A stretch of 32,000 nt of DNA from Perlucidibaca piscinae DSM 21586 (lineage in GTDB: Bacteria; Pseudomonadota; Gammaproteobacteria; Pseudomonadales; Moraxellaceae), in the NCBI RefSeq assembly GCF_000420045.1, contig NZ_ATUE01000007.1, forward strand, positions 141,202-173,201, written 5' to 3'. The notes under the pieces are model-generated. The model was given only the letters and a program-made list of their open reading frames with translations, had not been told where the DNA came from and searched no databases. Below are positions 15,275-27,145 of the stretch, in pieces (position 1 is the first letter of the stretch; each line of letters starts with the position of its first letter). Made by a program: the position numbers and the translations under genes.

Positions 15275-16237
15275 TTAGTGGGCGATGGCAAGCTTGCGCT
15301 TGGCTCCGGAACTTTCTGCGCTTGATCCATTTACCGACTGACGACGGCGCAAAGTCCAAGCTTTCAGTGCATCAAAGGCTTTGTGCGTGTCCTTGGACTT
15401 GTCATATGCACGCTTCCAGACGCGGATCACCTCGCGGTTGTCGTCATCCCATGGATGAAAATCCGGCGAAAAGTACGGCAGGAAGTGCGACGCGAAAATG
15501 CGAGTGAAAATTCCGGGCCGCACGAACAATTTGTCGCTCATCCGAATTGCCGAGCGCCAGTTGGTGAGCTGGCCATCCTTGTAAAGAAGATAGGCCTGAT
15601 TGCCTACCATGATCGGCACGCCAACAGCTACGGCCAGCCCCATCCCACCCACCCGCTTGAAATAGCCCGACAGTCCGCCCCCGCTTGCCTCCACGAACAC
15701 GTCAAAACTCACACCCTTGTGTTCGGTTTCCTCGACGAAGTGCCAAAACAACATGGCTCGTAACTCCGGATCCGTCTCGTCGAACAGGTCTGGATTCTCG
15801 AGCATCACCGAAGAAATGATGGCCGTGAAATGCTCGAAGGCCGCCGCAATGGAACATTGCATGTCCGGGCTGAGGCTGCCCTGCAAGCTGGTACGGATTC
15901 GCGTGAAGACCCTTTCGACGACATCAATGGGAACACCATGCTCCACGCATGCCTTGTTCATTTCGTCATGCTCGCGAGCGTGAATCCGCTCCTGCTTGCA
16001 GAAATTTATTGCCGCCTGCCTGACTTCGGGATCCTTGAGATTGTCTAACTGGATCCGGGCCGAATTCATGACCCAGCGCTCACCGTCTGGCACTGCTGCC
16101 AGGATGGCGTTCATCCAGTGTGTCATCCACGGATCACCGTTGAACCAGTGCCTGGTCACGGTCTCCGTATTCATCCGGAAGTGGAGATCCCGAGGGATCA
16201 CCTCCTCGTAACCTATCGACCTAGCTAACTCACCCAT
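15275..16237 (-). CDS. PF10118/COG3687-like protein (usually annotated 'metal-dependent hydrolase'), paralog 1
   Basis: SD GAGGAGAG. Conserved blocks are shared with the other two paralogs: P.GER, QE..H..EH, FEHFTA, WH..EE.EHK, F.P.FHP. The motif spacing is E53-X29-E83-X2-H86 and E135-X34-E170-X2-H173. Confidence 0.75.
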   Translation of the reverse strand: MGELARSIGYEEVIPRDLHFRMNTETVTRHWFNGDPWMTHWMNAILAAVPDGERWVMNSARIQLDNLKDPEVRQAAINFCKQERIHAREHDEMNKACVEHGVPIDVVERVFTRIRTSLQGSLSPDMQCSIAAAFEHFTAIISSVMLENPDLFDETDPELRAMLFWHFVEETEHKGVSFDVFVEASGGGLSGYFKRVGGMGLAVAVGVPIMVGNQAYLLYKDGQLTNWRSAIRMSDKLFVRPGIFTRIFASHFLPYFSPDFHPWDDDNREVIRVWKRAYDKSKDTHKAFDALKAWTLRRRQSVNGSSAESSGAKRKLAIAH

Positions 16238-16419
16238 AACCGACTCTCCTCAGTGCGCCCAAAAGGTTGGTCAACCATACAAATTTTAGGATAAGTGATA
16301 AGATATGGCTCTAATAAAGATTACACGAAAAAATGTTACCATGTCATCATGTAATTTATTGGTGCGCTCAGTCAAGTGCTGTTATGGCATATTTTCATGC
16401 TCACGAGGGCTTGCTTACG

Positions 16420-17294
16420 GGCGTTGTTGCGTAAACGCCTGCAGGTCATAGGCTTCGTGCAAAGTCTGATTGATCTGGCCAGGTTGGATTGACCCGTGCC
16501 TGACTACAAGCGCCATCTGCCGTCGTCAGAAGGCGCTGACTGTGAGTCTCCCTTACCGTCCCAATCGCGATGGCTTGCATCTGCTGGTCGACAACACCGG
16601 TGTGAAAATGCTGGGTGAGGGTGAGGGTGAGGGTGAGGGTGAGGGTGAGGGTGAGGGTGAGGGTGAGGGGGAGACCAAGAAGCATGTCGCGGAATACGGG
16701 GTAGAACCCACCGCCGGCAGTGGCGCAAGGCGCATCTGAGCATTGATGCCGAGACGCTCGAAATCAGGGCCATCGAGATCAGGGGCAACCGCATCGGCGA
16801 CGCGCCGATGCTGCCTGAGCTGCTGACGCAAATCCCGGTGACGGAAGTCGTGACGACCGTAAGTGGTGTATGGCGCCAAGGCCTGCCATGCCGCGATTGC
16901 GACACCCGGCGCGGCCGCTCTGATCCTGACCCTCAAGAATGCGCAGACCTGGAAAGGCAGCGGTGCAGGTGTTGAGGCTCGCCATGAAACCTTGCGTTCA
17001 GCCCGGCATCTGGGTCGGACGATCTGGAAGAAATGGAGCGGTTATCACCGGCGCAGCCTAGTGGAAACCAAGATGGGCTGCTTCAAGTTGCTGGGCGAGC
17101 GGGTGACGGCCAAAGACTTCGACCGCCAGATGATAGGGCTTCAGGTGCGCGCGGTGATCCTGAACCAACTTATGCGCTTGGGCACGCCGAAGGGAGGCCG
17201 CGAACTGACCGCTGCTGTCCCTGAGGCCTTTGCTGATCTCGGTCTGTGGCAACGAGTGCAGCCAAGTGTAGACATTTGGTTGTATGACCAATAA
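16420..17294 (+). pseudogene. IS5-family (DDE_Tnp_1) transposase, 5'-truncated and frame-broken
   Basis: The pieces lie in at least three frames: GFVQSLIDLARLD*PVPDY, ICRRQKALTVSLPYRPNRDGLHLLVDNTGVKMLGEGE.., HLSIDAETLEIRAIEIRGNRIGDAPMLPELLTQIP..VTTVSG, and ..KACHAAIA..IWKKWSGYHRRSLVETKMGCFKLLGERV, which carries the Y(2)R(3)E(6)K signature. Confidence 0.75.
16614..16673 (+). repeat. hexanucleotide microsatellite (GGTGAG)x9 + GGGGAG
   Basis: I counted it directly. In the transposase frame it encodes (GE)10 at the position where IS5-type transposases normally read GEGEWK. Confidence 0.95.
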
Positions 17295-17348
17295 AATGGT
17301 GTTTGTAAGCTATATCACGCTTCTCAAACAGATCAGTAGCAGGAGATT

Positions 17349-25751: not shown

Positions 25752-25762
25752 TGCGCTGCGAT

Positions 25763-26176
25763 TCAGGCGATACGGTAGACCATTGTCCCGTTGGCGATCG
25801 GTCTTCCTGAGCTTTCCTCACTGATCGCCACCTCGGTAAAGATCAGCTCGCGGCCACGTTTGACAGCTGTTGCGCTGGCGATGATGTCACAGCCGAGAGC
25901 TGCGGAAAGATAGTTCACGGTCATGGAGACTGTCGCCGCTTTCATGCCTCGGGAGGGGTCGTGACCGGACCAGGCGGCCAGCGCGCCGGTCAGATCCAGC
26001 AAGCTGCTGATGGTACCGCCATGCAGCGCGTTGCCACCGCCGGCAAGCTCTGCCCGGAAAGGCAGGCGCACCACCGCCTTGTCCCTGGTGACGCTGACAA
26101 TCTGGATGCCTAGCAACTTCTGGAATGGCACATCAGGAAACGCACTGATCAGTGAGTCTATGAAGTTGCCTGACAT
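25763..26176 (-). CDS. PaaI-type hotdog-fold thioesterase, module B
   Basis: The start is taken at MSGNFIDSL (26176, SD GGAG) rather than at the ORF-track start 26218. Motif: ..VVRLPFRAELAGGGNALHGGTISSLLDLTGALAAW.. Confidence 0.75.
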   Translation of the reverse strand: MSGNFIDSLISAFPDVPFQKLLGIQIVSVTRDKAVVRLPFRAELAGGGNALHGGTISSLLDLTGALAAWSGHDPSRGMKAATVSMTVNYLSAALGCDIIASATAVKRGRELIFTEVAISEESSGRPIANGTMVYRIA

Positions 26177-26272
26177 GAAGTTTGCTCCTGAAAAGGTGTG
26201 GCGCACGCTCTCTGCCATGAAAGCGTGCGCTGGATTGAAGTGATTCGAGTGTAATGGCGAAGCCCGCAGCTG

Positions 26273-27145
26273 TCATGCAACGCGGTTCTGATAGACATCA
26301 TGCAGAGCGCCACCCTCTGCAAAAAGTCGTTTCCGCCATGCGGACTCCAGAGCTCGCGTATCATGATTTTCAGGATGAAAGCGCTTGCCGATAAACTCAG
26401 GAACCCGTGGCAGAATTCCTGTAACAAAACCGTTCTTCCCGAACAGCATCGAAAGTCCCTTGACATTATCACCGATATTGCCTAGCTGCCTGTCCTTCGC
26501 CAGCATCCAGGCCCAGGTAATGCCGAGCATGGGCAGCAGCACTACCAGAGACGCCGCAGCGGCCGCGATACGCTCACCATGACTGTTTCCGATAACCTGA
26601 TAGACATCGTAGGCGACCGATTTATGTTCGAGTTCTTCGAGTGCGTGCCACTGCCAGATCTTGATCATTTCCGGATCGGCCAGGCTCTGGAAAGACTCGT
26701 CCTCGAGCAACTGCTCTGCCAGCAATGCGGTAAAGTGCTCCATGAATGTCGTGGCAGCGAGGCGTGTGCTTGACGGTAGCATTTCCAGAACGCGAAGGCC
26801 GATGCGGACAAACCGGTCTGGCGTTTCCATGTCAAACCCCTTTTCTGCCAACAGCGTGTTCAGTCGGTCATGTTCCCGGCCATGAATCGCCTCCTGCCCA
26901 ATAAAGCCGGAAATGGCTGCGCGTAACTCGTTGTTGGTTATGCTCGATCTGAACGGTCTTACCGACTCCATGAAGTAGCGTTCCCCGGGAGGGAAAAAAC
27001 CGGATAGCATGGCAAAGAAAGTCGTCGCGGTGGCATTTCCCGCATAAAAGTATTTCCGCATCGCTTCAGGAAATACGAAATCAATGTGTCGCGGTGGTAT
27101 GCCAACGGAGGCGCCGCTCAGGGTGGTGTTTGCTTTGGCTGTCAC
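26273..27145 (-). CDS. PF10118/COG3687-like protein, paralog 3
   Basis: GTG start with SD AAGGAGA. The motif spacing is E55-X29-E85-X2-H88 and E136-X34-E171-X2-H174. Confidence 0.78.
   Translation of the reverse strand: MTAKANTTLSGASVGIPPRHIDFVFPEAMRKYFYAGNATATTFFAMLSGFFPPGERYFMESVRPFRSSITNNELRAAISGFIGQEAIHGREHDRLNTLLAEKGFDMETPDRFVRIGLRVLEMLPSSTRLAATTFMEHFTALLAEQLLEDESFQSLADPEMIKIWQWHALEELEHKSVAYDVYQVIGNSHGERIAAAAASLVVLLPMLGITWAWMLAKDRQLGNIGDNVKGLSMLFGKNGFVTGILPRVPEFIGKRFHPENHDTRALESAWRKRLFAEGGALHDVYQNRVA

Follow-up and report, generated by a model that had tools for sequence, protein, structure and literature searches.

PF10118 "metal-dependent hydrolases" of Perlucidibaca piscinae carry an AurF/CylC-type dimetal signature and are predicted to adopt a ferritin-like fold

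Two groups of ferritin-like dimetal enzymes are, by their motifs, the closest described systems to the proteins discussed here. AurF and CmlI (PF11583) have a 3-His/4-carboxylate site, which in AurF is formed by E101, E136, H139, E196, H223, E227 and H230 (PMC11775713). The CylC-type dimetal halogenases are defined by the motif pair QExxH and HxxDExxH and act on unactivated sp3 C-H bonds of thioester-bound fatty-acyl chains (PMC12101540). In the degradation of long-chain alkanes, the enzyme AlmA was re-assigned to the Baeyer-Villiger monooxygenases (BVMOs) and alkane hydroxylation by LadA was not reproducible (PMC12449030), and T. oleivorans yielded no subterminal alkane hydroxylase (PMC6304351). 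We analyzed a stretch of 32,000 nucleotides of the Perlucidibaca piscinae DSM 21586 genome (contig NZ_ATUE01000007.1, positions 141,202 to 173,201 of the forward strand; hereafter the window, to which all coordinates refer unless another locus is named) that codes for three paralogous proteins of the Pfam family PF10118 (Metal_hydrol). Their sequences and predicted structures support well the conclusion that PF10118 proteins are most likely ferritin-like dimetal-carboxylate proteins with an AurF/CylC-type signature and not recognizable hydrolases. Judging by annotation names and the literature searched, the family has not been recognized as ferritin-like, and literature searches for PF10118, COG3687 and Metal_hydrol/IPR016516 returned no functional account and no report of hydrolytic activity.

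The three open reading frames (ORFs) are located exactly where the initial annotation had placed them. They are listed here together with the codons of their putative metal-binding motifs.

15275-16237, minus strand: PF10118 paralog 1, 320 amino acids, ATG start; E53 at 16079-16081, QERIH at 15980-15994, EH at 15830-15835, HFVEETEH at 15719-15742
17349-18221, plus strand: PF10118 paralog 2, 290 amino acids, ATG start; E45 at 17481-17483, QEGQH at 17568-17582, EH at 17727-17732, HGVEEVEH at 17823-17846
26273-27145, minus strand: PF10118 paralog 3, 290 amino acids, GTG start; E55 at 26981-26983, QEAIH at 26882-26896, EH at 26735-26740, HALEELEH at 26624-26647

A Shine-Dalgarno-like GGAG is found upstream of all three ORFs, and the G+C content of the window is 58.5%. 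The three proteins match PF10118 from end to end (E = 1e-73 to 9e-86), with scores of 248, 288 and 264 bits over positions 2-247 of the 247-position profile and a gathering score of 33.2 bits; a search of NCBIfam found no model for them. Their pairwise identity is 26-34%, in agreement with the moderate identity that had been estimated by eye. The initial annotation had also described a duplicated E...ExxH pattern in each protein. A scripted check located every residue named at its position, i.e., E53, E83, H86, E135, E170 and H173 in paralog 1, E45, E75, H78, E127, E163 and H166 in paralog 2, and E55, E85, H88, E136, E171 and H174 in paralog 3. ExxH occurs only twice in each paralog, and the histidines of the two motifs are 86-88 residues apart, which bears out the spacing of about 87 residues given before.

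The same residues stand out when the family is considered as a whole. When 1.84 billion representative proteins were searched with a profile (E <= 1e-3), 4,384 clusters were collected. With roughly 4,400 clusters at the 50% identity level, every one of them labeled "metal-dependent hydrolase", the family is fairly large. Conservation was evaluated in an alignment of 150 sequences, the three paralogs and 147 representatives with mutual identity below 50%. At a mean column identity of 25%, no more than 13 columns show no variation at all, and nine of these are motif residues. These columns are, in the numbering of paralog 2 that is used for the family from here on, P42, E45, F71, Q74, E75, H78, H82, E127, H159, E162, E163, H166 and P251, while H128, W158, E165 and H250 are conserved in at least 97% of the members. 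The family signature can then be written as E45...Q74-E75-x-x-H78(-x3-H82)...E127-H128...W-H159-x-x-E162-E163-x-x-H166. The doubled E...ExxH pattern is therefore present and can be refined, since its first motif has the form QExxH found in the CylC-type halogenases. The histidine of the WH pair ahead of the second motif, which had been considered an extra residue that could fit a heme-oxygenase-like site, is conserved as claimed but not in that sense, since H159 is the third histidine of an AurF-type HxxEExxH. Another shared element is a conserved and strongly hydrophobic helix at about residues 186-210, after the second metal motif (17904-17978 for paralog 2); the Kyte-Doolittle 19-residue mean is 2.4 in paralog 2, 2.1 in paralog 3 and 1.5 in paralog 1. 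This helix may serve in membrane docking or form part of a substrate channel. Residue 1 is absent from the rows of paralogs 1 and 3 in our alignments A1-A4 and from the structural model of paralog 3, in which residue n corresponds to protein residue n+1; the conclusions are unaffected.

Sequence comparison with other families connected PF10118 to diiron proteins. When the 150 members were scanned against Pfam at E <= 10, AurF was the commonest secondary match (42 members, best E = 5.5e-6), followed by COQ7 (17 members, best E = 8e-4) and rubrerythrin (13 members, best E = 1e-3); each of the unrelated families was matched by three members at most, and hydrolase families were matched by none of the 150 even at this permissive threshold. 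An independent sample of 10 members gave AurF matches in three and a rubrerythrin match in one. Paralog 3 itself matches AurF (E = 0.011, 15.4 bits), no AurF match was obtained in the scan for paralogs 1 and 2, and one database member already carried a precomputed PF11583 match. In four AurF alignments that were inspected, residues ~77-206 of the PF10118 protein align with profile positions ~111-232, HxxEExxH falls at identical profile coordinates, and the distance from the preceding glutamate to ExxH agrees with that between E196 and E227 of AurF.

The AlphaFold2 models of paralogs 2 and 3 are all-helical. The predicted local distance difference test score (pLDDT) and the predicted template-modeling score (pTM) are 91.3 and 0.89 for paralog 2 (47-sequence alignment) and 93.8 and 0.91 for paralog 3 (69-sequence alignment). 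In the model of paralog 2, E45 is in helix 41-53, E75 and H78 are in helix 62-91, E127 is in helix 116-137, and E163 and H166 are in helix 150-166; the ligand-type residues of paralog 3 are likewise distributed over four separate long helices. Foldseek comparisons with the Protein Data Bank (PDB) returned ferritin-like dimetal proteins as 46 of the 50 top matches of paralog 2, with template-modeling scores (TM-scores) of 0.40-0.47; among them were NrdF, R2lox, CmlI, ADO-like proteins, VlmB and soluble methane monooxygenase (sMMO). For paralog 3 such proteins were 49 of the top 50, the best match being CmlI (E = 0.018, probability 1.00, TM-score 0.46). R2lox (TM-score 0.49), the R2 subunit of ribonucleotide reductase (RNR-R2), sMMO, ADO (target-normalized TM-score 0.52), phenol hydroxylase and acyl-ACP desaturase were also matched by this paralog. 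Both models thus point to the ferritin-like helical fold that the initial annotation had anticipated, with weak E values (0.018 or higher) and TM-scores of only 0.40-0.49.

A comparison with AurF and CmlI shows a common layout, E...(D/Q)ExxH...E...Hxx(D/E)ExxH, in which the third histidine precedes the glutamate of the second ExxH by four residues. PF10118 also resembles these enzymes in that a dedicated reductase gene is missing. There are, however, several differences. The matches to AurF cover only the C-terminal half (profile positions ~111-232), glutamine replaces aspartate in the first motif and glutamate replaces aspartate in the second one, and PF10118 carries the extra residues H82, H128, E165 and H250. 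In addition, AurF belongs to arylamine natural-product clusters, while PF10118 is found in alkane and lipid catabolic operons. As for CylC and NocO, which were compared by their published motifs, QExxH is exact in PF10118 and HxxDExxH becomes HxxEExxH by an aspartate-to-glutamate change. The CylC-type enzymes are encoded together with acyl-activating enzymes, which parallels the acyl-CoA ligase and thioesterase genes that accompany paralog 2. On the other hand, PF10118 retains E127, a glutamate that in CylC is predicted to leave the coordination sphere and make room for the halide, no acyl carrier protein is encoded near the PF10118 genes, and the hosts differ, being cyanobacterial natural-product producers in the case of CylC and hydrocarbon degraders in that of PF10118. 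The highest TM-scores were obtained with R2lox (0.49) and with NrdF and R2 of class I RNR (0.45-0.47). These proteins have a similar size (about 290 amino acids), but their site is of the 2-His/4-carboxylate type and does not include the third histidine. R2lox has a long-chain fatty acid bound at its Mn/Fe site.

The PF10118 genes are part of three groups of genes, modules A (with paralog 1), B (with paralog 2) and C (with paralog 3). The other features of this region are as follows.

8174-10059, plus strand: IS3-type (rve) and IS110-family transposases, back to back
10594-11361, minus strand: MerR-family regulator, just downstream of BVMO_A
11913-13574, minus strand: BVMO_A, Baeyer-Villiger-type flavin monooxygenase with two Rossmann motifs and the fingerprint [AG]GxW...P[GM]xxxD
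13451-14509, minus strand: HSL-type esterase (Abhydrolase_3) with HGG and GDSAG motifs
14434-15330, minus strand: SDR_A, short-chain dehydrogenase (SDR) directly downstream of paralog 1, with TGxxxGxG and YxxxK
16863-17294, plus strand: DDE transposase remnant between paralogs 1 and 2 (PF01609, E = 2e-4, below the Pfam cut-off)
18222-19241, plus strand: BtrH_N/DUF4872 protein with a BtrH/DarH-like acyltransferase fold; the paralog 2 stop codon is directly followed by its ATG (junction TGAATG)
19247-19777 and 19770-20216, plus strand: two PaaI/4HBT hotdog thioesterases
20255-21805, plus strand: long-chain fatty acid-CoA ligase, above the cut-off of NCBIfam PRK06187
21775-23007 and 23017-24126, plus strand: two acyl-CoA dehydrogenases
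24107-25720, plus strand: GMC flavin oxidoreductase of the AlkJ/choline-dehydrogenase-like alcohol dehydrogenase type
25763-26218, minus strand: 4HBT thioesterase downstream of paralog 3
27172-28029, minus strand: SDR_B, short-chain dehydrogenase, 26 nucleotides upstream of paralog 3
28059-29561, minus strand: BVMO_B, type I BVMO with both BVMO fingerprints
29558-30538, minus strand: alpha/beta hydrolase with GxSxG, its end overlapping the start of BVMO_B by 4 nucleotides
30723-31775, minus strand: AraC-family regulator (Arabinose_bd and HTH_18) upstream of the hydrolase-BVMO-SDR-PF10118-thioesterase operon

Module A is read from the minus strand in the order paralog 1, SDR, HSL-type esterase and BVMO-type flavin monooxygenase. 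The strict fingerprint FxGxxxHxxxW[PD] was not found in BVMO_A. Its longest ORF has 553 amino acids, including about 60 residues ahead of the first Rossmann motif, and because of this N-terminal extension its true start may be internal; the start of SDR_A is probably internal as well, since its longest ORF runs into the end of paralog 1. Module B, on the plus strand, consists of paralog 2, BtrH_N/DUF4872, the two thioesterases, the acyl-CoA ligase, the two acyl-CoA dehydrogenases and the GMC oxidoreductase. Module C, on the minus strand, has the AraC gene upstream and continues with the hydrolase, BVMO, SDR, paralog 3 and 4HBT thioesterase genes. The transposases at 8174-10059 and the remnant at 16863-17294 suggest that module A was brought beside modules B and C by insertion-sequence activity. 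The neighbors named in the initial annotation, an SDR and BVMO or a ligase and PaaI thioesterase, were correctly identified, with the amendment that the direct neighbor of paralog 2 is the BtrH_N/DUF4872 gene and that the ligase and thioesterases lie beyond it. Its remark that a dedicated reductase is missing also held, as the window contains no reductase or ferredoxin gene. As in the known modules for subterminal oxidation of alkanes and ketones, SDR, BVMO and esterase are all intact in 11913-16237 and 25763-30538, and the AraC regulator upstream in module C recalls that of almA in A. venetianus (PMC11784139). The published subterminal schemes differ in that their first hydroxylase is unassigned or AlkB is borrowed for this step (PMC6304351), and nothing in the literature searched connects a ferritin-like protein with AlmA. 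Farther away in the window, the minus strand includes a gene for a WS/DGAT wax ester synthase/diacylglycerol acyltransferase (4004-5365), beside which are those for a Kup potassium transporter (5447-7354, minus strand) and an ABC exporter (1785-3641, plus strand).

Similar arrangements were found in other genomes. Genes within 3.5 kb of PF10118 were counted in 91 fetched loci, which are referred to below, where needed, by their locus labels (L-numbers). The 74 paralog-2-like genes are accompanied by BtrH (66), thioesterases (65) and the ligase (39); all six paralog-1-like genes have an SDR neighbor, and nine of the 12 paralog-3-like genes have a BVMO. Around the 23 more distant members, the neighbors include a further PF10118 copy (14) and AraC (8). 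The close relatives belong mainly to hydrocarbon degraders (Alcanivorax, Alloalcanivorax, Ketobacter, Marinobacter, Alkanindiges, Oleiphilus and HdN1) and also to metagenome-assembled genomes of Moraxellaceae. In A. borkumensis, hydrolase, BVMO, SDR and PF10118 follow one another in the same order as in the window and are convergent with a GMC, acyl-CoA dehydrogenase, acyl-CoA dehydrogenase, ligase, thioesterase and BtrH group. Just upstream of this A. borkumensis hydrolase-BVMO-SDR-PF10118 group there are genes for a FadL/Toluene_X outer-membrane channel and a 1029-amino-acid Big_5-like protein (L082, 1-3423). Nevskia has PF10118 followed by the ligase and two acyl-CoA dehydrogenases. An AraC gene of the same architecture as that of module C is found, in divergent orientation, beside PF10118 in L084, L089, L090, L091 and L093. 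Under a divergent AraC, PF10118 genes also form tandem arrays, with three in a row in L089 (6001-8738), and in L091 (5132-12495) two plus two copies under AraC are followed by an FMO-like/BVMO gene.

Some of these genes are located on mobile elements and plasmids. An Acinetobacter island has the order AraC, 2Fe-2S ferredoxin, P450, FAD reductase, IS5 remnant, PF10118 (paralog-2 type), TetR, BtrH_N and two PaaI thioesterases. It is a composite transposon with Tn3-like ISAcsp1 copies at its flanks in an Acinetobacter haemolyticus plasmid (L093, NZ_CP139049.1, 1-13718) and is also present in L058 (2683-11490). PF10118 relatives with 60% identity were identified in 56 Acinetobacter plasmid records, clinical A. 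baumannii plasmids included. In pMyong1, a plasmid of Mycobacterium intracellulare subsp. yongonense (L094, 950-12708), PF10118 is divergent from a TetR regulator gene, and within 6 kb there are genes for BtrH_N, a transglutaminase-like protein, an NDMA-dependent alcohol dehydrogenase, a long-chain acyl-CoA ligase, a hotdog protein, an alpha/beta hydrolase and an annotated R2lox. The linkage of PF10118 with BtrH, ligase and alcohol dehydrogenase therefore spans phyla. A shorter PF10118 relative of about 249 amino acids (31% identity over residues 22-185) is found in 134 Ralstonia megaplasmid records; on the Ralstonia solanacearum megaplasmid L095 (5959-6708), its gene is located directly upstream of one for a type III effector.

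Taking these data together, we propose with moderate confidence that PF10118 is a branch of ferritin-like dimetal oxidases/oxygenases, closest in motif to AurF/CmlI and CylC, that oxidizes aliphatic substrates, with in-chain oxygenation carried out by paralogs 1 and 3. We infer the identity of the metals, the use of O2, the type of reaction and the substrate from the motif, the fold and the gene context. Four helices of the bundle would supply the metal ligands, namely E45, Q74-E75-xx-H78, E127(-H128) and H159-xx-E162-E163-xx-H166, and these would hold a pair of metal ions (Fe2 or Mn/Fe) in a site of the 3-His/4-carboxylate type. The reduced cluster would then react with O2 and oxidize a long aliphatic substrate accommodated in a hydrophobic channel. 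A non-dedicated donor would deliver the electrons, as it does in the case of AurF/CmlI; in Acinetobacter this role could be played by the adjacent ferredoxin and reductase encoded in the island. The least certain part of the proposal concerns the roles of the three paralogs. Paralogs 1 and 3 would most plausibly supply the first step of the pathway, in which a C-H bond within an alkane or alkyl chain is oxygenated. This step is assigned to PF10118 because the other three of the four subterminal steps are covered, from secondary alcohol to ketone by the SDR, from ketone to ester by the BVMO, and from ester to alcohol and acid by the esterase. The CylC-type enzymes show that unactivated sp3 C-H bonds in fatty-acyl chains are within reach of a scaffold of this kind. 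Paralog 2 would more likely oxidize a thioester-activated acyl chain, because its neighbors are thioester-handling enzymes.

Several results weigh against this proposal. In the Foldseek comparisons of both paralogs, no match reached E <= 1e-3 (best 0.018), and the TM-scores of 0.40-0.49 came with root-mean-square deviations of 6.5-9 A. Searches of PDB sequences by phmmer and with profiles A2, A3, A4 and member P0417 produced only chance matches, and the PDB sequence and profile searches found no solved relative of PF10118. When the family profile was compared by hhalign with E. coli NrdF (NC_000913), the probability was 3% and motif 1 of PF10118 was paired with motif 2 of NrdF. Comparison of the N- and C-terminal halves by hhalign gave no significant internal two-fold repeat; the sole local half-to-half match, D61/D149, is in register with both ExxH motifs and has a probability of 0.4%. 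All of the AurF matches are below the PF11583 gathering score (the best inspected has 24.5 bits and the gathering score is 29.6 bits), and for this reason we consider PF10118 proteins to be relatives, not members, of AurF. An AurF-type site, moreover, leaves the extra conserved residues H82, H128, E165 and H250 unexplained. With regard to gene context, several family members occur by themselves and lack lipid-related or BVMO neighbors, and a two-gene PF10118-BVMO operon would be compatible with an ester-hydrolyzing partner as well.

The expression data also include results that are unfavorable to the proposal. In the supplementary proteomics of A. borkumensis SK2 grown on n-C14, pristane or pyruvate (PMC6850023), sequence matching identified ABO_0181 as the paralog-2 ortholog, ABO_0182 as BtrH, and ABO_0184-0187 as the ligase, the two acyl-CoA dehydrogenases and GMC, while ABO_0188-0191 correspond, by their position, to the module of paralog 3. 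ABO_0181 and ABO_0182 were at 0 to 0.8 spectral counts and unregulated, ABO_0184-0187 were about constant across conditions, and ABO_0188-0191 were not among the proteins detected on any of the three substrates (PMC6850023). Thus, the counts of ABO_0181 are peptide-level evidence of a real protein and none for its induction by n-C14 or pristane. The product of the next locus tag, ABO_0192, is a very abundant lipoprotein-like protein that was lower on n-C14 in the SK2 proteome. No PF10118-like protein was present among the detected T. oleivorans proteins in the proteomics supplement. In the transcriptome of A. venetianus RAG-1, ORFs 1533 and 1534, both "metal-dependent hydrolase", were up 143-fold and 28-fold, respectively (dodecane vs. 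dodecanol), which is a lead only, as they are no more than possible PF10118 members.

A different chemistry on the same scaffold is an alternative that we take as a serious possibility, although not as a probable one. In this case, PF10118 would remain a ferritin-like dimetal protein and would work as a desaturase, a decarboxylase, an aldehyde-deformylating or -oxidizing enzyme, an enzyme of oxidative ester or ether cleavage, or an R2lox-like lipid-binding oxidase that operates downstream of, or beside, the BVMO and beta-oxidation steps. The fold and motif evidence is identical for this explanation and for in-chain oxygenation. The best TM-score belongs to R2lox, which binds a fatty-acid ligand, ADO has the target-normalized score mentioned above, and the annotated R2lox of pMyong1 is encoded near PF10118. 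The operon of paralog 2 includes an alcohol dehydrogenase and an acyl-CoA ligase and does not include an aldehyde dehydrogenase, and the ligase and thioesterase genes in it recall CylC and the acyl-ACP desaturases, whose substrates are tethered as thioesters. However, in the case of paralogs 1 and 3, PF10118, SDR, BVMO and esterase can be mapped one-to-one on the four subterminal steps only if PF10118 is the hydroxylase, and direct evidence for an alternative chemistry is absent.

PF10118 might also be a protective protein, a ferritin/rubrerythrin-like peroxidase, ferroxidase or iron buffer that keeps down the oxidative damage done by uncoupled flavin monooxygenases, GMC oxidases and acyl-CoA dehydrogenases while cells grow on hydrocarbons, which we consider improbable. 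Flavoenzymes are abundant in every PF10118 operon, some members are found alone and outside catabolic clusters, and 13 of the 150 members show the weak rubrerythrin matches described above. AurF matches are nevertheless three times commoner, and stronger, than those to rubrerythrin, and no rubredoxin-like domain is present. Besides, ancient subfamilies keep their own enzyme neighbors and there are tandem arrays of three to four paralogs, features that suggest substrate diversification and not generic protection, and the conserved hydrophobic helix suggests contact with lipids.

A BVMO and an esterase are a classic gene pair, and a minimal operon consisting of AraC/PF10118-BVMO, with no other esterase, exists in one locus. 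It could be argued, then, that PF10118 is what its Pfam and NCBI name says, a true metal-dependent hydrolase, and that its substrate is an acyl thioester or the ester that the neighboring BVMO produces. We judge this explanation to be improbable too, if anything a little more so than a protective function. As already described, no member matched a hydrolase family and no hydrolytic activity of PF10118 was reported in the literature searched. The sole hydrolase among the top Foldseek matches was a cyclohydrolase with a probability of 0.13-0.15 (paralog 2). In the window, each BVMO module has its own alpha/beta-hydrolase with intact GxSxG, and the operon of paralog 2 has two thioesterases.

Finally, a heme-oxygenase-like diiron oxidase (HDO) of the UndA/SznF/BesC type, the alternative that the initial annotation had raised and that the many conserved histidines beyond the six canonical ligands could favor, was rejected on the fold-search results of paralogs 2 and 3 and is very improbable: the list of paralog 2 includes one weak match, a TENA/THI-4 structure at rank 47 (E = 2.1, probability 0.44), the top 50 of paralog 3 include no HDO, heme oxygenase or TENA, HO-like/TENA Pfam families were matched by none of the 150 members, and the AurF-type HxxEExxH accounts for the "extra" WH histidine.

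The proposal that PF10118 proteins are ferritin-like dimetal oxidases/oxygenases is relevant because AlmA was re-assigned, LadA is disputed and no subterminal hydroxylase is known in marine degraders. PF10118 genes lie in operons of the corresponding kind in Alcanivorax borkumensis and its relatives, and on Acinetobacter transposons they accompany a P450 alkane hydroxylase. We suggest, tentatively and as an idea that is rather unlikely to be correct, that PF10118 is the missing metal enzyme with which Alcanivorax, Acinetobacter, Marinobacter and their relatives carry out the first oxygenation, in-chain or subterminal, of long-chain alkanes or alkyl chains, and that it provides AlmA-type BVMOs with the secondary alcohol or ketone that they process. 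If this were true, it would explain the genetic need for AlmA in growth on long-chain alkanes in spite of the fact that AlmA cannot hydroxylate alkanes. In this respect, PF10118 is a concrete candidate for the missing first step in the breakdown of long-chain alkanes, and one that can be tested at low cost. Whatever the substrate is, thousands of genome annotations would be corrected if the family were relabeled as AurF/CylC-like dimetal oxidases instead of hydrolases. The ferritin-like oxygenases would also gain a new branch, catabolic and directed at lipids, which would be of interest for C-H functionalization biocatalysis.

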